From Folioceros fuciformis (taxonomy: Eukaryota): 57,216 nucleotides of DNA. Below, piece by piece: positions 1,759 to 57,216 of the stretch. The notes beneath the pieces are model-generated. The model was not told the DNA's origin, ran no database searches, and was given only the letters and a program-made list of their open reading frames with translations. A program made the position numbers and the translations under genes. Within the stretch, counting starts at the first letter, position 1, and each line of letters opens with the position of its first letter. Location: NCBI GenBank assembly GCA_049999805.1, contig JBNGIO010006248.1:137304-194519 (forward strand), given 5' to 3'.

Positions 1759-2719
1759 ATCGAGCTAGATGCATAAATTAGTTGTCCACGAGGCACCCTG
1801 AAGGCACATGTTGAAAGAGAGCATGCTTCAAGTAGTAAAGTAAATAAAATTGCTAATGTGATTAGGAAAGCTTGACTACATGGCTGTATATATGCCAAAA
1901 GCCTGGTAGCTACACCTTTTCAAAAGCCTATCTAGTTTGAAAATGTAAAATTAAAGGGTTTGGCAAGAAGAGGTGTGAAATGTTGCTCGTCATTTTTGAC
2001 TACCCTAGAAAAGATAGTCTTTCAATGCAACCATTGCTCTATGGATTGTTTAGGTTCCTATTGTGGCTTCTCTCCCTCTCTAGGAGTAGATGAGTTTTTC
2101 CATCTTGTTCTTCTAAAATAAATAAGTTTTTGATTTTTTTTATTAAATGATTATTGGGATGGTTTTTGAAATCTATATTGGTGTAAGTTTCACCTTTTTT
2201 AAAGATTTTTGTTTTTGCTTTTTTTGAAAAAAATAAAATTGATATGAAATAGACATTGTATCAATATAATATCAGCAGGTTTACGAGTTATAGCAATCGA
2301 GAAAATCTCCAGGAAATTCCTTGAAAAGGCGATTAATCCAATCAGGACATTCTCGATATTCCAGCCAAAACTGAAGTGACTTCATGTTCCAAGACTTGGT
2401 TTCTGATTTAACACTATTTATGTTTTTTTCTAACTGGAGGGAGACCAATCAGGACAGCTCCCATGAAAGCTCGCCTGATCGGTCGGAATTAGGCGGGGTC
2501 GACTGTATTTCCTCGCACGTGCGGGAACGGCATATAGAGGACGTACAGGAGCTGGCTTTTCACTGTAGTGTAAGCTTGAGCCTTCTGCTACTCAGGCCTG
2601 GGCCTGGGGTGCGACGGATTGTGGAGCGTGGAGTCCGGGAAGTCGATGAGCGTCTCAAAATTCGTGAGATGCATGCGGGCGGGGTATGGTAGAAGCTAGG
2701 GTTGTGTGACGGGGCAGAG

Positions 2720-5700
2720 ATGGAGGACGCGGATGGCGCTCTCAATTTTGATTTCGAGGGAGGCTTGGAGAACGTGGCCTTGGCCGGGGGTGCAGGGCTC
2801 GGTGGAGCTTCGGGGCCGACGCCTCCTCTGGCAGCGTTGCCTGGAAGCGGAGGGCATAATGGAGGAGCGGGGCCGTTCGCCGGGAGCTTGTTAGCGGGCT
2901 CCAAGACCTCGCAGGGCCGAAAGAACTACAGGCAGACGGTGTGCCGGCACTGGCTCAGGGGACTGTGTATGAAGGGAGATGCGTGCGGGTTTCTTCACCA
3001 GTACGATAAATCGCGCATGCCGGTATGCCGGTTTTTCGCTAAGTTCGGCGAGTGTCGTGAGGCTGACTGCATCTACAAACACACTAATGAGGACATCAAG
3101 GAATGCAACATGTAGGCCTGCTCTAACTTTTATCATGCCTCAAGTGGCCATTTTGTTGTTCTGCTCCAGCCGGTAGCATGCCACAGTTGGTAGGTAGGGT
3201 TGGAGTCTTGGTTCGTTCCCTGCAACGGTGTGGGAGCTAGAGTAGGCAGCGGAGACACGGTGGAGTACGGTGTCTTGTCTTGGACAGAGTGTCTCGTGTC
3301 GGGGGTAGTGCAGTTGTGCGTTTTTGTTTTGTATGTTGTACCTAAGCCGTGGAGCACTCATAGTATCTCTATGTAAGTCAGGATCTGTATAACCTGGGAC
3401 AAGCTGAGCTTTCTGTGTAGCTGTCTGATCCAAGACTATGTTGATAGGTACAAGTTGGGTTTCTGCCCGAATGGGCCTGGTTGCCGATACCGACACCAGA
3501 AGCTACAGGGGCCCTTTCCTGCAATCGAGCAAGTGCTTCAGAAGCTCCAGCACCGAGTTTATGCGCCTAATGGTGGTCACCACGGCAAGCAGCAGCAAAG
3601 ACAGAATCAGAACCATGGACACCCAGATGGTTCTTCCTGGCAGCATCCTCCTGCGCCTGCGAACTTGGGAGCAGGCGGGGAGGACTCTCAGACCCAGCCA
3701 CAGCAGCAAAAGGGGCAGCAACGCTCAGATCAACCATCTGCTGTTCACCTAGCTCAGCCTGGTATGCATCTGATATCGGCCAATGGTGTGCAACAACCTA
3801 AAGTGGAGTCCATCTCAGCTCCAATTCCTCCAGGCTACTCTAGGTTGGTTCTTGCGTTCTAGCGCCTGCAACATTCTGGGATTTGTGAAAATGGTTTGCC
3901 CGTTTTTGTCATGTTTGTGGGCAAAAACTGACAGAACTTGATCAAATGCTTGGAACTTACTGTGTCTTTTGGCTTTGCAGGTTCTTCATAGTGAAGAGTA
4001 GCAACCGCGACAATCTCGTTTTGTCGGTTGAGAGAGGCTTGTGGGCAACGCACAGGAACAATGAATCAAAGCTGAATGAAGCTTATGATTCATGTGAAAA
4101 TGTCATCCTTATTTTCTCTGTCAACGAGACACGCCACTTTCAGGTTGGTGATGTTGGTGATCATGTTGTTGGGAATCTCCACAGACAGTTACTTGTTTCT
4201 AATACTGTTTTCTATTGTAACAGGGTTGTGCTCGGATGATGTCAAAGATTGGTGGGATTGTAGGAGGAGGCGGTTGGAAGTCTGCTCACGGGACTGCGCA
4301 TTATGGTCGAAATTTTCGCCTGAAATGGCTGAAGGTACTTGGTGGTCTTTGCCATCAGTGCTCGTGCTGTTGCCTTTTGATGGCACTCAAATCGTAGTGG
4401 GCAGGCGGTCTCAGGTTGTTGAGTGCTGGAATTGATGATCATTTGTGGTGCCTGCAGTTATGTGAGCTCTCATTTAACAAGACTCTCCTCCTTCGAAATT
4501 CTTACAACGAGAATCTTCCTGTCAAGGTTTGTGGTGGCACTTTTTAGTTCCATTTGCACTATTGAGAGTGAGCGTGTAGCGGACTAAAGGTCATGGATGT
4601 TTCCCTTGTGACTAGATAAGCAGAGATTGCCAGGAGTTGGAACCTACTGTCGGAGCGCAGCTGTCGTCTCTTCTGTATTTGGAGCCCGACAGTGAGTTGA
4701 TGGTAAGTTGATTCACATGGATTTTGAATGAGCATGCATGTGAGAAGTCAGCTCACTGCTGCAGATAGTCTTGAGTGGTTTTGCATGTCTGAAATGAAAG
4801 GTCTTTTTGATGCTTGCAGGCTGTAGCTAGGAACTGTGAAAAGAAAGCAGAAGAAAAACTTTTAGGTGGGCAGAATACAAATGAGGAATTGGAGGATCCG
4901 ACAAATATTGTGCCTTTTGAGGACAACGAAGATGTTCAAGAGGACAATGACAGCGAGGAAGATGCTTCCAGTTTGGGTGTGGGCATGGGGAACGGGAGGG
5001 GTAGACCTATGATGCGGGGGCCCAATCAGATGTGGCTACCCAATGGACCAGGACTCGATGTTATGGATCGTGGTAGAGGTCTAGGAGCAAGGCCGCCTAT
5101 GGGCTTCAGGCCTCATCCGGACATGGGTGTCGACGGGTTTCGTATGAATTGGATGAACAGGGAAGGTCCTGGGATGCTTCCTGGAGAGATGTTTGGCGGT
5201 CCTCCTCCTCCTTTCCACGGTCCTGACGGTCCAGGGTTTGGACCCATGGATGGCATGGGCCCTGTGGCTGGTCCCTACTTTCCTGTGCAGCATCATTCTG
5301 GGGGAATGTTTCCTCCTGGTGGCCCAAAGGTGATGGGTCCTCCTCCTCATATGATGGGGGTTGGGGGTCCACATCCGGGAATGATGAATCCTGGTCCTGG
5401 CGGGTCATATTACGGCCATGGCCCTATGCTCAGACCAAATCGTCCAATGGGGTTGCAATTCCCTCCACCATATCCAATTGGGGGCCCCAAACTAGGGGGC
5501 CCTAGGGGTACTGAAGATCAGCGGCCTCCGAAGAGGCCTAACGCAGCCGATAGAACTGGTGTTCCTGGGAAGAACGCACCCTCATCCTCTCAAAGGAGAA
5601 GCTCTGAATCATCCGACCACGGTGAGTATGATGGGCAGGATGGTGGCGATCAGATGACTTACGGCAGTAAATTTTACGCAGGCGACGATGATGACAGTGA

Positions 5701-9089: not shown

Positions 9090-10206
9090 CGGGATTTCTT
9101 GGTCGGTGGTTTACAATCCATCGCGCAAAGCGACTCACTAAGCCGAATATGCAGTAGTACCGAATGGGAATCGCTAGGACAAGTACAACATCTTTATATC
9201 CGAAAGGGGGAGACATTCTGGATGCAAAGAATTTAATTGAGGATCAATTCCGCAGCGTGTAAGGTTTAAAACTCAAAAGAGATATACAATACTAGATTAA
9301 AAGATATCTAATAACTTATCTAGTTTAAAGCTAAGATACTCTGCTAAGAATTAACAAGCTCATTATAATTTAGCTCTATCTTAAATACAAGGGCATGGTA
9401 TTTTTACTTACCGATGTATATATCAAAAGAATGAAATCTTTCAAATAAAATGAAAGATCAAATTGATTTAGGGTTTAGGGTTGAATTCTTTAAAAAAATA
9501 ACTTAAAATTTCAGAAATACTATATACTTGACTTTATCGTTCTTAAGATTAGGGATGCTTGTTAATAACGTAGAGGAAGATGTAGATATAAGTAACTGTA
9601 AATTAATAATCACTTCAATCCACACAAGCAGCCTATCTTAAAAGTTTGCACCCAAGAACCTTATTGTTGAACTAAAATAAAGATTTCAATTTTATTATAT
9701 AAAACATCTAATGATATAAAAAATATTTATAAGATTTAGGGTATATTTATATATTATTTTAAATAAGTGATCATAATATATAGTTTTATATGAGCGCCTG
9801 GTACTCTTGTGTGAAAGGAACCGTGAGATGCTAGCGCTTTATTGTAAAATAATATAAATTTGAGCACGACTTGTTGCATGTATCCAAAAACCATATTGTA
9901 GACAACTGGATTCCTTAGCTGGTTCCTTCAACGTGGACTGTTGACTAGCGGGGTGATGCACTTCCAAAGATGGCGCGTCCGACCAAAACTCTTGTACCAG
10001 GGAGTGTCAGCAATCGTATGCCCCAGGAGCATGCAATGACAACCCCAGTGTTGCGCTGCCATCTTCACCAGCATGCCGCCTTTCTCTCATTGTGCCCATG
10101 GACATCGGCTCCCAAGCTCGACCCCTGCCCAACAATTCCCTCCTGCTTCAACTGCCGCCCCTGCACTATGCGAGCTGCTCAGAATTGGGGCGGGGGGCGG
10201 GCTTAG

Positions 10207-11562
10207 ATGATGTTTGCAGATAGGAGAGGGGCCAGGAGGAAGGAGAGTTCAGGAATGAAATTCCACAGACCACCATGTGCCATTGGACACTGTCGACATC
10301 CTCTGGACTACGTGACTGGCGTGTTGGTGGTGCTAGGCTGCGTACCTTTCATTCTGGGGAATGTGGTGATCGTTGTGAATCGGAAGTACTCGCCCATCAA
10401 GACCAAAGCTGTAGACCTGACTGTGATGAGCTCTGTGGGAGGGCTTATCTGGCTGGGAGCAACCATCGTGGTGAATGGTCACTTGGGCCGAGCCAAGGGA
10501 AGCATCTTCGCTGTGTGTCCGCTGTGGACTTTCTGGCTGCAGGCCTGTTTTGGGTTTGCGTTATGGCTGAACTGTATGACGGTGCGGCTCTTCAATTTGC
10601 ATCTCATCTTCATCAGGAAGGTGCAGACACTCAGAAGATGGAAGCACATCATTCTGCCCCTGATGTTGTTGCTGGCTCCGGTTATTGGCTTTTCGACTGC
10701 TGCCACTGTTTTCCAAGGAAGCAAGTGAGTAAGTGAGTGATGGACAGCTAGCAGCTTGGGACGTCATTGAAAGCTGGTGTGGTGCTGCACCTGGGTGGAT
10801 GTGGATGGATGGCTCGTTTGTCGTCTTCGTGGCTGATCGAATTCCGGTGGTGCCTCCAGATTTGAGAAGAAAGCGCATGATTGCAAAATACAGACATGGT
10901 TTTGGTCCTTCAGTCTTCTTGTGTTGTTTCCGCTCTATTTCTGTATCTTCCTTGGCCTTGCGTTCTCCCTGAGGAACATCATGGCACACTACAACGAGTT
11001 CAGGTGACGTTAGTAACTTCGCGTCATCTCATCCATCAAGCTCCCGCAGCACCTGGTGTTGAACATCTCCCTGGTGGTGGTGCAGGCTGATCCGCAACGG
11101 AGGGGTTATGTCTCTGTTTCTGTTTCAGCTATCACTTGTCACGATCCAAACGGAAGGCTACAAGAAACCTGGAGGCAGATGCTTCTTGTCCCTGGTTGTC
11201 GCTGGAGCAGTCTTCTACTACTTCTGGGCACGCAATGGTTGTGTGATCTACAATGTTCTCTTCCACAAAGAGCAGTACCTGAAAAGCTTCATAGAGAAGC
11301 TGCAGGCATGCACTGATACCGGCAACACAATGTTAGTATTCTCCTCACACTTGGGTTGCGTGTGTTCCTTCCACCAATCTTCCTTCCTTGCGCTCATGTC
11401 CACATACTTTCCTGGCACAGAGACTTCTACCCTGATGCCTACCCAAACATGGAGCTGCTACTGCAACAGTCCAGAGAAGAGGCTGCCGCGCATAAGATGC
11501 AAATTAAGGAGCTGGAAGAGAGGATAGCAGTCTTAGAAGCAAGGTTGTCCATGAGCGTCTGA
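10207..11562 (+). CDS. 7-transmembrane protein resembling the RGS1 membrane domain, with a short C-terminal coiled coil and no RGS box, 4 exons
   Basis: Exons 10207-10724, 10860-11003, 11086-11331 and 11421-11562 splice in frame (349 aa; alternative ATG at 10255). Motifs PCAIGHCRHPLDYV, CPLWTFWLQACFGFALWLNCMTVRLFNLHLIFIRK and DCKIQTWFW...LRNIMAHYNEFR parallel the plant RGS1 7TM region as recalled. Confidence 0.75.
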
Positions 11563-12045
11563 GCCAGTCATTAGCGGAGCAATGAGCTCAACAGAGATGA
11601 GAGTCCACACGTTGAAAGTGTTCAAAATTAATGAAGTTTGATAAGCAACTTCCTCCAATTCGATTACACGAAGTTGCAACAAGACGAGTAGCTACGACCT
11701 CAGTGGGGAAAACGGCAACACTTACAAGCCTTGACGCGAACCATAATCACGTCTCAGACTCATGCTCTTGATAAAGCGCATAACCAAACGACTGAGTCCT
11801 CAACTACCAGTTGCCATTAGCTATGGACAGGAAGAGTCTCGCGACTGCTTGGAGGCGTGGACAGCTGTTCGCCATTCAGCAGAAGCATCCAGTCATCTGA
11901 ACTCTGGTGCAGATCCGGGTACCAAAGCCACGAGGAGAAGATGAGAGCTCTGTGCGCACATTCCCATTTGACCTAACAGAGGCGCACATTGCAACTCCAA
12001 AAAGCATCGCACAAAAAGCCTACTTCACCACGGCAGTCAAGTGCT

Positions 12046-12987
12046 CTACTTCTTGAGACGGAAATGGCTGTTTAACAGTCTCGAAACTTCTACGAACTCA
12101 ACTCGGTCTTTCCCAAAGATGGTCTTCAGCTTGTCATCACACATGATCTCCCGCTTCCTCTCGGGATTCTGCTGGACAAGGCGGGGAAGTGAGAACAAAT
12201 CATAGCCACCACCACCAAGACCTACTTGTCACTCAACACCCGCAGACCCTGCTTTTCAACACCCGCAGACCCTGCTTTTCAACACTAAATCAGTTGAAAG
12301 AAAAACAACACACTCAAGACATAACCTTCCTGCAAAAGCAGCATCAGCATCAACGTAATGTTTGAGCTGACTTGCATGAACCAGTCCCCTCAACCATTTC
12401 GTTGAACAAATTAGGATGACAAACTGCGGCATCATACATTCCGCATAAACAACTTAACGTCAAGTCGGTCTGCATCTCAAGCTTCTGGACAAATAAGAAC
12501 GAGATAAAACACCGCAGGGTAACTCCAGCTGACATACTGGAGGCCACATTACAGACGCACAACAAAGGTCGACGTAAGGAAAGCCCTAGAAGGAAAGAGA
12601 CAGCTCAGGAAGCCTTGCCTGCAGCTGATTGTCCTTGATGTAGCTCCACACGGAGCGGAGGGCATTCACACGAGAACATTCTTCAACTCCAAGAAACTTC
12701 TTAAGAGCAGGGGACACCGGTTGCGCTTTGGTGAAGCCCGCCGGAACTACCTTCGCTGCTGTTTCTACAGCCTTCGCCACCGCCTTCGAAGCCACCATCG
12801 CTACGAATTGGGGGCGCACTCTGCCGGCTCAGAGGCAAGCACGGTTTCCAAGACTGTGCATTCGGACTCCGGATGACTTGCCGTCGGACTGGTTTGCGCG
12901 GTTGCGCAAAGAGAGGAGCCACCCGGTGTGGTGGACACGAAGTGCGAGCCGGTGAGAACTTACCGGCTACCGGCACCTTCCCGCCAT
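12046..12987 (-). CDS. Stand-alone SWIB/MDM2-domain protein (organellar nucleoid SWIB type), 3 exons
   Basis: Exons 12987-12977, 12820-12619, 12168-12046. GFTKAQPVSPALKKFLGVEECSRVNALRSVWSYIKDNQLQ-NPERKREIMCDDKLKTIFGKDRVEF. Ala/Val-rich leader resembles a targeting peptide. Confidence 0.88.
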
Positions 12988-39304: not shown

Positions 39305-39913
39305 AGTGGTATCAGAGCAGGTTGTGGAGCAAGACCATGAAGATGGCCATCTAGGAGAGGGAGGGTAGCCACGCAGGCGCCACCTCGATGCCATGCAGGC
39401 GCCACCTAGGCGCCATGTGAGAGCCACTTGGGCGCCACCGGGCGCCACATCAGCGCCACCTAGGCGCCATGTGAGCACCAACGGGCGCCACATCAGCGCC
39501 GCTTAGGCACCACGCGGGCGCCACCTTGGCGCCACTAGGCACCACTTGGGCTCACCGGGAGCCACGCAGGCGCCACCGGCGTGCCACCTAGGCGCCTCCG
39601 GACACCACGTGGGTGCCCATTACGCGTGAAACGAGCATGCCAGTGAAGCGAGGACCCGATTGACGAGCGCCAGAAAGTGAACAAATCGCAGACGCCGGGA
39701 GCGAGTGTGTGGGCGCCGTATTGACCCCGGCTGAGGAAGTCAGGATCTCGATCAGACGTAGGAGGACATTCCTGTTATGAACGATAGAGGCCCAAGTTGT
39801 GGACATACGATTCGGAAGAAGTTATGAGGGTAACCTGTAGAATCTACATTTCATTTCGACCAATTTCAAACTAGCTTTTTGGTTGATTTGGATCGATTTT
39901 GAAGCATAACGTC

Positions 39914-42900
39914 ATGTTCAATATCGAGAAGTTAGATGGTACTAACTTCCCGTTCTGGAAAGAACAAGTGTATAATGTTCTAGTACAGAAGAAGCAGATC
40001 AAGCCCATCAAGCTGCTAGGAGTGAAACCTGTTAGCATGACTCAGGATGAGTGGCAGGATCTAGATGAGCTTGCTAGGTCTACCATCATGCTAACAGTGT
40101 TGAAGTCGGTCTACTTCAACGTGAAAGACAAGACCACAAGTTTCGCGCTATGGCAGAAGCTGTGTGACTTGTATGAGAAGCAAAGTGCGGCTTCTCAGGT
40201 GTATTGGTTGAAACAGCTGGTGGACTTGAAGATGAAGGAAGGGACGAGGATGTCCGATCATCTGAATGAGTTCAATACCATTTTCAGCCAGCTCTCATCT
40301 CAAGGTATCTCGTTCCCAGATTCCATGAGAGCTATGTTTCTGTTGGTCACATTACCAGAGAGCTGAGACACCTTCCGTACGGCTCTGAGTAATTCCGCTC
40401 CTGCCAGTGGTCTTACCGTTGTAAATGTAGAAGGTAGCCTGTTAACAGAGGAGGTGAACAGGAAGAATATGGAACCTTCGAAAGGTTCTAATGCCCTCAT
40501 GGTGAGAGGAAGGTCCACTTCAAAGGGGAAGTACAAGGAGCGAAGTTCTTCCCGCAGCAAATCTCGTAGTCGTAACAATGTTGAGTGTTACCATTGTCAC
40601 AAGAAGGGTCACATCAGAAGGGACTGCGAGAAGTTCAAGAAGGAAAAAGGCAAGGAGAAGAAGCAGAGCGACAACAAGGCAGATTCGAGTATCGAGCGTG
40701 ATGAGGTGAACTCTGTTGACGATGAAGATGTTCTTATCTCTTCTTCTTTTGATTCTGCACAACTGACAGCCATGGAGAGTCACTTATTCTCTAATTGGAT
40801 AATTGACTCTGGAGCATCTTTCCATGTTACTTCGCATAGGGAGTGGTTTAGCACTTATGATGCTACTAGGAAAGGATGTGTTCGGCTTGGAAATAACTAC
40901 GCGTGCAAGATAGCAGGCGTTGGTGATGTGCAGCTGAAGTTCGACAACGGATCTTCATTCACACTAAAGGATGTCAGGCATGTTCCGAAGTTGACCAAAA
41001 GCATGATTAGCGCAGGGCAGTCGGATGACGCTGGCTACCACTATTGGTTTGGAGATCGTTCTTGAAAGATCTCCAAAGGTTCTCTTGTGATAGCTCGTGG
41101 ATCGAAGTGTGGCACTTTGTACTCACTTCAGGTAACCACTGTCAAGGATCATGTGATTTGTGTAGCGGAACAGCCAAGTGTTTCCTTGTGGCATAGTCGG
41201 TTAGGACATATGTCTCAGAAAGGAATGAAGATCTTATCTCGTTTTGGTTACGTCCCTGCTCTTGACTTCTCCGATTTCTCCGTGTGTCAGCACGTGTGAA
41301 GCGGTGGTTACGGCAGTGCATCTTATTAACAGATCTCCTAATAGGGCTGTGGATGAACAGGTTCCAGAGGAGATGTGGTCTGGAAAGAAGCCGTCATACA
41401 AACATCTACGAGTGTTTGGCTGCGAGGCATACTACCATGTTCTGAAGGAGTTTCGCGACAAGTTGGCTCCTAAGTCAAGAAAATGTATTTTTCTTGGCTA
41501 TGGTGAATCTGGTGAGATGGGATACCGTCTGTGGGATCCAGAAGCCAAGAGGATGGTTCGCAGCAATGATGTGTTCTTCAATGAGACCAAGATGCACAAG
41601 AAGCCTACTCCAACTGTGGAGGTGCGACGGGTGGTCTTCCAAGAAGATGGACTTGACCGTCCCGCGCAGGCTGAACATCGTGATGTGCAGGAACAATTTC
41701 GTCCATTTGTAGACGAGGAGAGAGTGCAACCAGCTCCGGTCGAGGCGCCAGTGCTTCGTAGGTCAGTGCTTTGTAGGTCAGGAAGGATCTCACGTCCTCC
41801 TGACAGGTATGTTGCATCTCTTGATTATGTCATGCTGACGGATTGTGGGGAGCCCTCTTGTTACCAAGAGGCCATGTCAGTGACTGACAAAAACAAGTGG
41901 GAGAAGGTGATGCAGTCGCAGATGGATTCGCTCCATAAGAACCAAACTTGGGAGTTGGTTCGGTTGCCTAAGGGCAAAAAGGCGTTGCCATGCAAATAGG
42001 TGTATAAGATGAAGGACATACCCCATTATGGCAAACCCAAGTACAAGGCACGATTGGTTGCGAAGGGTTTTAAGCAACAGCAAGGTATTAACTTTGATGA
42101 GATTTTCTCACCAGTTGTCAAAATGACCACCTTGCGATGTGTTCTTGGTCTGGTTGCGAGGCTCGACATGGAACTTGTCCAGATGGATGTGAAGTCGGCA
42201 TTTTTGCATGGTGATCTCCAGGAAGAGGTATACATGCAGCAACCAGAGGGTTTCATTGAGAAGGGCAAAGAGAGTCTGGTGTGCAAGTTAAAGAAGAGCC
42301 TTTATGGTTTGAAGCAAGCACCCAGGGAGTGGTATTTCAAGTTCCACTCATTTATGCTTTCTCAAGGCTACAAGCGTAGCGATGAGGATCATTGCCTCTG
42401 TACGAAGCAAGCTAAGGATGGAAGCTTGCTCATTCTAGTCCTCTATGTGGATGATATGCTAATTGCTGGGACTAACATTGATGAGATTTCAGCGTTGCAG
42501 TCAAAGTTGAATGGTCGCTTTGACATGACAGACTTGGGGGAGGCAAGCCATATTCTTGGCATGCGTATTCGTCGAGACAGACAGAAGCGTTTGATGTACT
42601 TGTCTCAGACAGAATACATTAACAAGGTGCTTCAACATTTCAATATGGAGAAGGGGAAGGTCTTAAGTACTCCGTTGCCTCCATATGTGAAACTTTCGAG
42701 CAAGGATTGCCCAAGTTCTACGGAGGATAAAGCTGAAATGGAGAAGGTTCCATACTCATCAGCTGTAGAGAGTTTGATGTATGCAATGATTGCTACACGT
42801 CCTGACATTGCTTTTGCAGTGGGAGTGGTTAGCAGGTTCATGTCAAACCCTTGCAGGAAGCATTGGGAGGCAGTGAAAAGAGTTATGAGGTATTTGAATG

Positions 42901-43401
42901 GTACAAAAGCTTTGTGCTTATGTTTTGGTAGTGAAGATGCATCTGTAGTGGGATATACGGATGCTGATTATGCAGGGGATATGGACAAAAGGAGGTCCAC
43001 ATCAGGTTATGTCTTCATGTGCACTGGAGGGGCAGTCTCATGGCGATCTCGTTTGCAATCGTGCATAATGCTATCTACCACAGAGGCCGAGTATGTTGCA
43101 GCGACTGAGGCTTGCAAGGAAGCCATGTGGCTTGCTCGTTTAGTGGGAGATTTGGGGATCAAGGTGAGCTGCCAGTGTTGCATTGTGATAGCCAGAGTGC
43201 TATCCAGTTGGCGAAGAATCCAGTGTTTCATGCGAAGACCAAACATGTGGAAGTGAAGTATCACTTCATTCGAGAGGTGTTGGAAGACAAGAGGGTACAG
43301 CTTGTCAAAGTTCACACCAGTTAGAACCCTGCAGATGTTCTTACCAAGGGGCTCTCTACGGAGCAATTCACACAAGCTCGGACACTCATGGGCATGAGCT
43401 A
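39914..43401 (+). pseudogene. Disrupted gag-pol polyprotein
   Basis: Stops at 40364, 41063, 41997 and 43322. Integrase core missing near 41290. Frameshift near 43160. Confidence 0.92.
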
Positions 43402-55485: not shown

Positions 55486-57216
55486 TCAGGCAGATCGATC
55501 AGGCCTCCACCTGGATTTCTGCATAACCACAATCTGCTCTAGGTCTTGCTCGTCGTGATAGATTTGCAGCCAGTGCAAGGAATTGAGGACGGGAAGTACA
55601 TCCTCCGCTAAGACCACGGTCTTGTCACGGAAGATGACCCATCCTTCAGGCCTTACTATCCGGTCCACCTCGATGAGAGTGTTGACAATGCCACAGCGCT
55701 TCTTCAAGCGCGAGAAGACATGATCGGAATGAAGGAGGTCATAGGTTCGGGGGTAGGTGCTGAAGGATTCACACCAGTCATGATATATCCCGAACAATCC
55801 CCGTTCGTAGATGATGGGTAGAGTATCCGGCTCGTGCGTAGGCACCACGTTCATAACCCAGAGTGGCTGGTCGGCCAAAGCAGCAGCGAAGCCTCCATAT
55901 CCTGCGCTCATGTCCATCACATTGCGCACATGGGTCCAGTCAATGCCCAGCCCCTTCAAGTACAGCTTCTGAATCACACGGCTCCAGTGCTCACTGTTCT
56001 CCTGGAACTCCTCACCAGCTGGACGCCCATACAGACCCTTGGGGATCTTATAAAGCCAGGCCGGCACCGTCGTCAGCCGACGGGGCCACTGCTCCGGCCA
56101 CTGAGCTCCTCGCACATCGCCTTCCGGCAGCCTGTGGACGCATGCATTCATGGAGACATACCAGGCAGCATCCGGCTTGTCATCCTCTCCACACAAGGGA
56201 GGGAAGTTCTTCTTCCGGTTGTCATAGCATGTGTTGTCAGTAGGCTTCTGGAAAATAGCCACCCCAATACCCGTGGTGGCATCCGTCGTCCGGGAAAGCA
56301 GATCCCAGCAGATCTTGGACGTCAGCCTAAGCATAGCCTTCCAATCATCAGCCTCCGCCCTCTTGTAAACAGGGGTAGCAGACCAAACGAAAAACCCACC
56401 AGGCCTCAACATCCTGTTCAGCTCCAACAGCAGCATCCCACCCTCAATCTCCCAAGGCACCCGGCACCGTGCACAATGCACCACATCGAACACATTACTC
56501 GGGAACGGCAGCCTCTGGGTACCCATCACAGCGGAAATGGCAGGAATCCCACGCTCCAGAGCAAACTGCACCTGAGCCTCGTGCTCATCCTTGGGTGCCA
56601 AGGACATCGCCAACACATCCCTATCAAACAGGAAACCCCCAAAACTAGCCACACCACAGCCAACATCCAATATAACACGAGTGCGCTTCCCCCACGCAAC
56701 ATCCGTCTTGCTCTTCTCTATAAAGTCTATGTAATGCCCAGCACCGGCCTTGAACTGCGTCCCACCACCAGGAAAGATGAGGTAATCTCCACGCTTCTTC
56801 ACCCAGTTCTGATCCGCCTTGTAGGTAGCCAGCTTGGTATAGGGCACATTGGAATACCAGACCTTGCTGCGGCTCTCCGGCCAGGTGATGGGCACCTGGT
56901 ACCCCTCCGGCAACGGCACCAAACATTTGGGCATCTCAGCCTCAGCAGGACAGTGCCTTTCCCTGTGCTCGTAATGCTTAGTGCTCTTCAACTGAGAAAT
57001 AGCCTTCTGGTTATCCAAGCAGGGAATATAGTCCTGCGCACCACTCCACTCGCAGCTCTTCCAATCGTTCGGGGCTCCATCACCTTCGCTCTGATCCCCC
57101 CCGCTCGACACCGTCACAGGCTTGATCTCATCCCCCTCCGCGGTCGGCCCCTTCCGATCCGCCTCCTCCCCATCGCCGGAACCCGTCTCCTCCTTCGACT
57201 CCACCGACTGGCTCTT
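55486..57216 (-). CDS. Probable SAM-dependent methyltransferase, PMT/DUF248 (Methyltransf_29) family; 5' end outside the window; no introns in the visible part
   Basis: DYIPCLDN, EHRERHCP, FPGGGTQF, LDVGCGVASFG, QVQFALERGIPA, RNVMDMSAGYGGFAAAL, HDWCESFSTYPRTYDLLH. Resembles the PMT24-28 subgroup. Confidence 0.95.
   Translation of the reverse strand, partial: KSQSVESKEETGSGDGEEADRKGPTAEGDEIKPVTVSSGGDQSEGDGAPNDWKSCEWSGAQDYIPCLDNQKAISQLKSTKHYEHRERHCPAEAEMPKCLVPLPEGYQVPITWPESRSKVWYSNVPYTKLATYKADQNWVKKRGDYLIFPGGGTQFKAGAGHYIDFIEKSKTDVAWGKRTRVILDVGCGVASFGGFLFDRDVLAMSLAPKDEHEAQVQFALERGIPAISAVMGTQRLPFPSNVFDVVHCARCRVPWEIEGGMLLLELNRMLRPGGFFVWSATPVYKRAEADDWKAMLRLTSKICWDLLSRTTDATTGIGVAIFQKPTDNTCYDNRKKNFPPLCGEDDKPDAAWYVSMNACVHRLPEGDVRGAQWPEQWPRRLTTVPAWLYKIPKGLYGRPAGEEFQENSEHWSRVIQKLYLKGLGIDWTHVRNVMDMSAGYGGFAAALADQPLWVMNVVPTHEPDTLPIIYERGLFGIYHDWCESFSTYPRTYDLLHSDHVFSRLKKRCGIVNTLIEVDRIVRPEGWVIFRDKTVVLAEDVLPVLNSLHWLQIYHDEQDLEQIVVMQKSRWRPDRSA

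Follow-up and report, generated by a model that had tools for sequence, protein, structure and literature searches.

A class C-type seven-helix membrane protein of Folioceros fuciformis with a predicted coiled-coil tail in place of an RGS box

The gene at positions 10207 to 11562 (forward strand) of the 57,216-nucleotide stretch of DNA analysed here (the window) is real, expressed and under coding constraint, and it encodes a seven-transmembrane (7TM) protein without an RGS box. From sequence profiles and the structural model of a relative, the protein is assigned to the class C-type 7TM proteins, with neither a Venus-flytrap nor a cysteine-rich ectodomain. Its sequence places it in clade g1 of a conserved, two-clade family of land plants, and points to a paralogue of the membrane module of the 7TM-RGS proteins in which a predicted coiled coil replaces the RGS box. 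This identity and architecture are very probably correct.

The coding region consists of four exons joined at GT-AG sites, and specifies 349 amino acids (Table 1). With GT and AG sites enumerated so that one frame stays open as far as the stop codon (11560-11562), 16 combinations are possible, of which the model with the strongest, most consensus-like sites was chosen. The same exons are found by tblastn with eight homologues, whose matches in the whole 57-kb window are confined to these four segments, and in an assembled transcript contig (see below). The four-exon, polytopic membrane protein of about 349 residues that was drawn up in the original prediction is therefore the product of this gene. 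An in-frame TAG codon (10204-10206) abuts the ATG at 10207, and therefore the N-terminus cannot be extended upstream without splicing. A tblastn search with proteins of the second clade of the family (g2) finds no second locus in the window, as its matches are to the gene at 10207 to 11562 only.

Table 1. Features of the gene and its transcript, in window coordinates.
Feature	Position	Strand	Evidence
5' UTR with uORF	9950..10206	+	X1 contig starts at 9950; in-frame upstream ORF 9970-10206
Exon 1, coding: N-terminus, TM1-TM4, start of extracellular loop 2	10207..10724	+	Site enumeration; X1 joint 10724>10860
Intron 1, 135 nt, GT..AG	10725..10859	+	X1 contig and site enumeration
Exon 2: remainder of extracellular loop 2 (conserved Cys), TM5, NEF motif of intracellular loop 3	10860..11003	+	
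Intron 2, 82 nt, GT..AG	11004..11085	+	X1 joint aligned as 11000>11083, 'cut +3' = 11003>11086
Exon 3: TM6, TM7, helix 8, linker	11086..11331	+	Enumeration, tblastn, X1 contig
Intron 3, 89 nt, GT..AG	11332..11420	+	X1 contig and site enumeration
Exon 4, coding: cytosolic tail (predicted), heptads at about residues 312-345 (11446-11547), stop 11560-11562	11421..11562	+	
3' UTR, colinear with the genome, reaching the final exon of SWIB (convergent, minus strand)	11563..12172	+	X1 contig

The transcript contig was recovered from a public run (X1). It is 2108 letters long and covers 9950-10724, 10860-11003, 11086-11331 and 11421-12172 with 0 mismatches. Its three joints have GT..AG borders and leave out 135, 82 and 89 nt, the three modelled introns. 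The recorded run type is a guess, and X1 is taken as RNA because the three introns are precisely removed. The run contains 0.71 of the sampled words, which is about the share of exons and untranslated regions in the query. Past the stop codon the contig remains colinear with the genome for 610 nt, with no splicing in 11421-12172. Read as its reverse complement, the loose end beyond 12172 codes for the following SWIB exon, on the minus strand, and the contig is therefore a merger of two convergent transcripts. Nothing from two other runs, X4 and X21, aligns with the window. No splice from the gene to a further exon is seen in X1, in the sole contig recovered from this one run. The complete transcriptome open reading frames of relatives also stop after the coiled coil, and neither they nor the contig include an RGS exon.

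No RGS domain (PF00615) is detected by Pfam in any of the four exons. A hidden Markov model built from six RGS domains finds nothing in the six frames of the 57-kb window (best E value 6.7), and tblastn with the same six domains finds nothing in the whole window either (best E value 0.23). Among the relatives, RGS domains are absent from the family proteins scanned with Pfam, and from the precomputed Pfam column of the 36 profile matches described below. The stop codon of SWIB (12046-12048, minus strand) is located 483 nt past that at 11560-11562, close to the 480 bp from which it had been argued that little room is left for an RGS box; the blank RGS searches are in keeping with that argument. 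An incomplete gene model, with an RGS or other domain contributed by an extra exon elsewhere, is extremely unlikely. The 3' end of the model does depend on one contig from one run, and contigs drop rare isoforms. However, this contig reads past the stop codon into SWIB, an in-frame stop precedes the ATG, RGS-like sequence is found nowhere in the 57 kb, and the full-length homologues from transcriptomes and genomes finish at the same point.

Evidence for coding constraint comes from a second run (X2), of a related organism that is about 90% alike, in which a contig represents part of an orthologue. Among the differences listed between X2 and the window in 10320-10635, 22 of 35 are at third-codon positions (binomial P 3.3e-4). 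Five rows beside an indel (10283-10298) were left out of this codon-position count, as were 10 further rows beyond those listed.

A Kyte-Doolittle profile of the window protein has seven hydrophobic segments (residues 39-57, 71-89, 100-136, 148-166, 192-210, 223-241 and 251-275), the same number as the TM helices in the structural model of its closest relative, P0001, and in agreement with the seven helices proposed at the outset. Only 38 residues are located ahead of TM1, and a Pfam match to the Venus-flytrap domain (ANF_receptor) is absent. The segment NRKYSPIKTK (residues 58-67) lies immediately C-terminal to TM1, and may correspond to the loop-1 motif of class C receptors. A cysteine at the top of TM3 (C109 in P0001 numbering) is present in 48 of 48 aligned sequences, and another in the TM4-TM5 loop (C191) is conserved in at least 90%. 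The equivalents of both residues are kept in the window protein, and they may form an extracellular disulfide. Because GPCRs have a like Cys pair, with one residue topping TM3 and the other in extracellular loop 2, the N-terminus is predicted to be outside and the tail in the cytosol. The N-terminus of the window protein is rich in Arg and Lys, and an outside location is therefore not favoured by the positive-inside rule; the same region is not conserved in the X2 relative.

Exon 1 alone (TM1-TM4) matches the Pfam 7tm_3 profile with 20.7 bits (E value 3.6e-4), below the gathering score of 33.5, with residues 31-160 aligned to profile positions 5-131. Five relatives are above the gathering score, namely P0001 (41.7 bits), P0008 (42.6), P0007 (40.4), P0004 (37.5) and P0018 (53.6). 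A phmmer search with exon 1 against the sequences of the PDB gives 0 matches. The evidence for the fold is an AlphaFold2 model, based on a 48-sequence alignment, of P0001, a relative with 54% identity, and not of the window protein itself. The model has a mean pLDDT of 86.7 and a pTM of 0.78, and contains seven TM helices, a β hairpin between TM4 and TM5 (extracellular loop 2), a short helix 8 and a long terminal helix. In a Foldseek search of the PDB with this model, GPR156, GABA-B, CaSR and mGlu receptors lead, with E values of 5.4e-6 to 2.5e-4, and one class A receptor (8zps_R) is in the list, at rank 29. VIA-align superposes the P0001 model on the GB2 subunit of GABA-B (7eb2_D) with a Z score of 23.8 and an rmsd of 3.4 Å for 253 residues. 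Among the 50 matches listed, Z scores are 21.8-23.8 over 234-273 residues, all for class C receptors. A language-model feature search of the Atlas places GPR156 clusters nearest, with a score of 0.93. The class C affinity suggested by the loop motif in the original prediction thus finds support in the five relatives that pass the 7tm_3 profile and in the superposition of the P0001 model on class C receptors.

There are 74 residues after TM7, where about 75 had been estimated, and they close in the heptad repeats quoted in the original prediction. From the sequences and the model, a conserved C-terminal coiled coil of four to five heptads is predicted after helix 8. Such a tail is present in 14 of 14 sequences of the family alignment (A1), and 24 of 34 family tails have Leu, Ile, Val or Met in at least six of the eight a/d positions. 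After shuffling of the tails, the mean is 4.3 of eight positions filled, and fewer than 1% reach seven. The tail of the window protein is short; hydrophobic side chains follow the a/d spacing in its last 35 or so residues, and five of the eight a/d positions are filled in its best 28-residue frame. In the P0001 model the tail segment is a single long helix (residues 317-364), with block pLDDT values of 82-97. The A1 profile matches only coiled-coil chains in the PDB, weakly (E values 0.003 to 1), and no class C chain is found there at E values up to 1. A dimer prediction for the tail (P0001 residues 306-365, two chains), run without alignment or controls, has a score of 0.25 against a mark of 0.32, and gives no evidence either way. 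The net charge of the tail has a mean of -4.2 in g1 proteins (-8 to 0) and -1.6 in g2 proteins (-6 to +3), a weak trend towards complementarity without a clean acid/base pair. Oligomerisation through the tail, as suggested by the heptads and the modelled helix, is given about an even chance.

The membrane domain was compared with that of six 7TM proteins having a Pfam RGS box (alignment A3), found among 124 proteins scanned; these are cluster representatives and not a named plant RGS1. The hhalign comparison of A1 with A3 gives a probability of 100%, an E value of 7e-51 and 27% identity over 263 columns, which extend from before TM1 to helix 8. The RGS1-type similarity of the 7TM region, put forward from sequence motifs in the original prediction, is well supported by this match to the six 7TM-RGS proteins, none of which is a named plant RGS1. 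The two alignments diverge directly past helix 8, with a coiled coil in A1 and an RGS box in A3. Exon 1 alone matches the closest RGS-bearing protein, P0020, with an E value of 3e-20, and a search with P0020 returns P0020 itself only. When 7tm_3 clusters are excluded from the Atlas search, the nearest named cluster is RGS-bearing, with a score of 0.75, which is a lead only.

Homology of the window protein with the plant and protist 7TM-RGS proteins (AtRGS1 type) covers TM1 to helix 8. Both have the TM3-top and extracellular loop 2 Cys residues, the NE[FY] motif after TM5 and the GR motif before TM7. The cytosolic loop motifs NRxYxPIKxK after TM1 and NEFR after TM5 are also common to both. AtRGS1 presumably has these shared motifs of the family. 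The label 'RGS1-like' is used because of the matches to 7TM-RGS cluster representatives, an automatic name given by NCBI (see below), and the motifs that AtRGS1 presumably shares. There are two differences, however, between the window protein and the 7TM-RGS proteins. The window protein has no RGS box but a predicted coiled coil of four to five heptads past helix 8, and in the phylogenetic tree the six RGS-bearing rows are separate from the g1 and g2 family.

Nine longer proteins were retrieved in a word-seeded search with exon 1, with 49-59% identity to it, and Riccia fluitans, Diphasiastrum complanatum, Selaginella moellendorffii and Cryptomeria japonica are among their sources. All nine have seven helices and a like tail. 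An exhaustive phmmer search returns 118 cluster representatives at E values up to 1e-3, 29 of them at E values up to 1e-10. The window model has 54% identity with P0001 over 327 amino acids (E value 4e-114), and 46-50% identity with the proteins of Riccia, Marchantia, Diphasiastrum and Cryptomeria. A profile built from the 14 sequences of A1 was used to score the 7999 candidates sharing the most words, and 36 proteins are found at E values up to 1e-5, 16 of them without an organism name. The named matches are from liverworts (Marchantia and two Riccia species), lycophytes (Diphasiastrum and Selaginella), ferns (two Adiantum species and Ceratopteris) and conifers (Picea and Cryptomeria). One further match carries a Ginkgo-style identifier, and is taken by us to be from Ginkgo. 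No angiosperm, moss, hornwort or alga is among the named matches from the 7999 candidates scored, 16 of the 36 matches being unnamed. Proteins of the family have about 310-430 residues; 34 of the 36 matches have 215-433 residues, and two are longer, with 429-542 residues.

In the databases these proteins are titled 'hypothetical protein', 'uncharacterized protein' or 'G-protein coupled receptors family 3 profile domain-containing', and one Cryptomeria isoform was automatically named 'regulator of G-protein signaling 1 isoform X4' by NCBI. The family is unstudied, yet already in databases under automatic names. The identifiers Mp1g05640, LOC9657419 and SELMODRAFT_449405 are named in no paper found, and no paper was found that combines 7tm_3 or PF00003 with Marchantia or Selaginella. 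Among the papers found, supplementary files aside, none describes an RGS1 relative with a coiled-coil tail and no RGS box; the survey of Mohanasundaram et al. 2022 (PMC9237705) may mention the family.

The maximum-likelihood tree has 63 rows, comprising the window model, 19 other g1 proteins, 17 g2 proteins, the six RGS-bearing proteins and 20 other 7tm_3-like matches. It is a quick, unrooted tree of rows picked by hand among the full-length matches, and several of the outgroup rows have long branches. The window protein is located in clade g1 (SH-aLRT support 96), the support for g2 is 100, and g1 and g2 are joined at 99. The six RGS-bearing rows are outside g1 and g2, and are not resolved as one clade. 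Proteins of both clades are found in Marchantia, Riccia fluitans, Selaginella, Ceratopteris and Cryptomeria; in Marchantia polymorpha the g1 gene is MPTK1_1g05640 and the g2 gene MPTK1_6g08470. The 'orphan receptor-like protein' of the original prediction is therefore receptor-like in its 7TM domain, but it is not a lone orphan, being one member of a conserved family with two clades.

This distribution bears on whether the gene is a decayed RGS1, a functionless pseudogene or lineage-specific truncation from which the RGS exon was lost. In favour of decay, homology to the 7TM domain of the RGS-bearing proteins is clear, a Cryptomeria member was automatically named as an isoform of regulator of G-protein signaling 1, and loss of 7TM-RGS in bryophytes is reported in the available text of two papers (PMC3386157, PMC12017998). 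Decay is nonetheless very unlikely, as two paralogous clades keep the architecture and the tail, from liverworts and lycophytes to ferns and gymnosperms. The window protein retains 36 of the 37 columns of A1 that are conserved in at least 90% of the sequences, the exception being the column of the start Met. The X2 differences are enriched at third-codon positions (P 3.3e-4), and the X1 contig is spliced. Moreover, g1 coexists with 7TM-RGS in Selaginella and, at the genus level, in Picea (P. sitchensis against P. glauca), so the family is not a mere remnant of RGS1. A table in PMC3386157 credits a 7TM-RGS gene to Selaginella, Pinus taeda and Picea glauca.

A comparison can be made with two animal receptors. 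The window protein is like GPR156, an orphan class C receptor of vertebrates that lacks a Venus-flytrap domain, in its short N-terminus and in having the class C-type bundle alone. GPR156 is also the best Foldseek match of the P0001 model (8yk0_A, E value 5.4e-6), with a Z score of 22.5, and the nearest language-model cluster (0.93). In contrast, the sequence identity is just 12-15% in the GPR156 rows listed, and therefore orthology is not implied. According to the available text of PMC11621567, GPR156 is a class C receptor without a large ectodomain that is dimeric and constitutively active.

The likeness to GABA-B is in the superposition of the TM domain, the best one obtained (7eb2_D, Z score 23.8), and in the presence of two paralogue clades, g1 and g2, side by side in the same plant species. 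Both GB1 and GB2 have a C-terminal coiled coil past the 7TM domain. In comparison, the window protein lacks a Venus-flytrap ligand-binding domain, and the tail charges of g1 and g2 complement each other weakly. GB1 and GB2 form an obligatory heterodimer, as stated in the available portion of PMC12499500.

The best explanation of the data, which we regard as fairly probable, is a dimeric class C-type 7TM protein with a coiled-coil tail, the output of which would go through cytosolic partners. The protein would sit in the membrane with its N-terminus outside and its tail in the cytosol. The tail would zip two subunits together, as a g1-g1 homodimer or a g1-g2 pair. The 7TM bundle may sense a small ligand or the state of the membrane, in the manner of GPR156 and of the allosteric sites in class C receptors. 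Partners in the cytosol, bound at the loops or the tail, would carry the output, and plant Gα/XLG proteins are the most plausible of these. The NRxYxPIKxK and NEFR loops, common to the 7TM-RGS proteins, would touch the same kind of partner. A direct link to G proteins, suggested by analogy with these proteins, is a tentative proposal with less than even odds.

The chief rival to this explanation is a role outside G-protein signalling, in which the class C-type bundle would, for example, serve endomembrane trafficking or tethering, scaffolding or a transporter-like task, and the coiled coil would be a tether or adaptor site. A common fold does not prove a common function. Plant Gα is reported in the available text of PMC3386157 to be self-activating without a receptor, and other plant 7TM proteins have been linked to cellulose synthase secretion in the available part of a preprint (bioRxiv 10.1101/2020.10.20.345868). 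On the other hand, the closest relatives with two domains bear an RGS box, a Gα-directed module (six of the 124 proteins scanned), and the nearest named Atlas cluster outside 7tm_3 is RGS-bearing, as a lead only (0.75). The conserved NRxYxPIKxK and NEFR loops are also common to the RGS-bearing proteins. A role of this kind is considered rather unlikely.

Returning to the dimeric protein with cytosolic partners, its boldest form would be a g1-g2 heterodimer formed through the coiled coil, similar to GABA-B without the ectodomain, and acting as a true class C-type receptor in non-flowering land plants, with Gα/XLG under its control. This form is improbable. If it is true, the receptor could work by bringing in a separate GAP or by affecting nucleotide exchange, and it could fill a regulatory gap where Gα is present and 7TM-RGS is missing, for example in liverworts. 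A classical role as an exchange factor is not expected, because plant Gα is reported to be self-activating (PMC3386157, available text).

Receptor-type 7TM partners for plant G proteins are an old open question. RGS1 is the one accepted plant 7TM regulator, and it has been reported lost in bryophytes and cereals. The family described here is a concrete candidate for the missing upstream component, and it occurs in Marchantia, where knock-outs are routine and where Gα reportedly has fast GTP hydrolysis in the absence of an RGS. It is also a natural experiment on what the 7TM half of RGS1 would do alone. The absence of angiosperms among its named matches may explain its neglect.

For liverworts and mosses, the available text of PMC3386157 and PMC3718340 reports that an RGS homologue was not found, and that the liverwort Gα has fast GTP hydrolysis without RGS. 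The 7TM-RGS proteins are described as having arisen in streptophyte algae and been lost in bryophytes and some cereals (PMC12017998), and RGS as having been lost repeatedly (PMC11061236), in the available portions of these papers.

Other genes in the window encode CCCH-YTH, SWIB, Fis1, pantothenate kinase, RabGAP-TBC and HAUS1 proteins. Also present are genes for a protein kinase and a C2H2 zinc finger protein, a Methyltransf_29 gene and a copia element. This set of genes fits a land plant or a close algal relative.

The 5′ untranslated region of the 7TM gene contains an upstream ORF of 78 codons, six of them for Cys, in the frame of the main ORF. Its TAG stop codon is immediately followed by the ATG ATG start of the main ORF. 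The upstream ORF is fully spanned, with no mismatches, by the RNA-like spliced contig (run X1). In the contig from the related organism (run X2), 46 nucleotides of the window around the main start codon are replaced by 74 different ones.

At the other end of the gene, the stop codon lies 483 nt from that of a convergent gene encoding a SWIB/MDM2-domain protein. A single contig spans both 3′ ends (11563-12172), and therefore the 3′ untranslated regions of the two transcripts probably overlap, or the assembler merged the two.

Within the 7TM family, the Cryptomeria isoform that bears the name 'regulator of G-protein signaling 1 isoform X4' has only five helices (comparison of P0007 with P0009): the TM6-TM7 block is missing, and the coiled-coil tail follows directly on the NEFR motif, which comes after TM5. 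The tail itself is unchanged, and the C-terminal extension is different. Two proteins similar to the g2 clade, P0029 (659 aa) and P0132 (542 aa), are far longer than the other members, and have the same C-terminal tail as the remaining family. These long proteins may be fusions or mis-predicted models.

Features of the window near the 7TM gene and elsewhere
Feature	Position	Strand	Remarks
CCCH zinc finger, then YTH domain	2693-4236	+	
Upstream ORF of the 7TM gene	9970-10206	+	
SWIB/MDM2-domain gene	12046-12828	-	convergent to 7TM gene
Copia-type LTR retrotransposon ORFs	39887-43253	+	gag, Pol beta-barrel, SH3-like, RVT_2
Methyltransf_29 protein ORF	55489-57216	-	E 1.7e-222

Elsewhere in the window, the CCCH-YTH architecture is one known from plant CPSF30-L. 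The retrotransposon ORFs are spread across several frames. The Methyltransf_29 ORF is unbroken over 576 aa and continues beyond the end of the window, and the gene apparently has no introns across this region.
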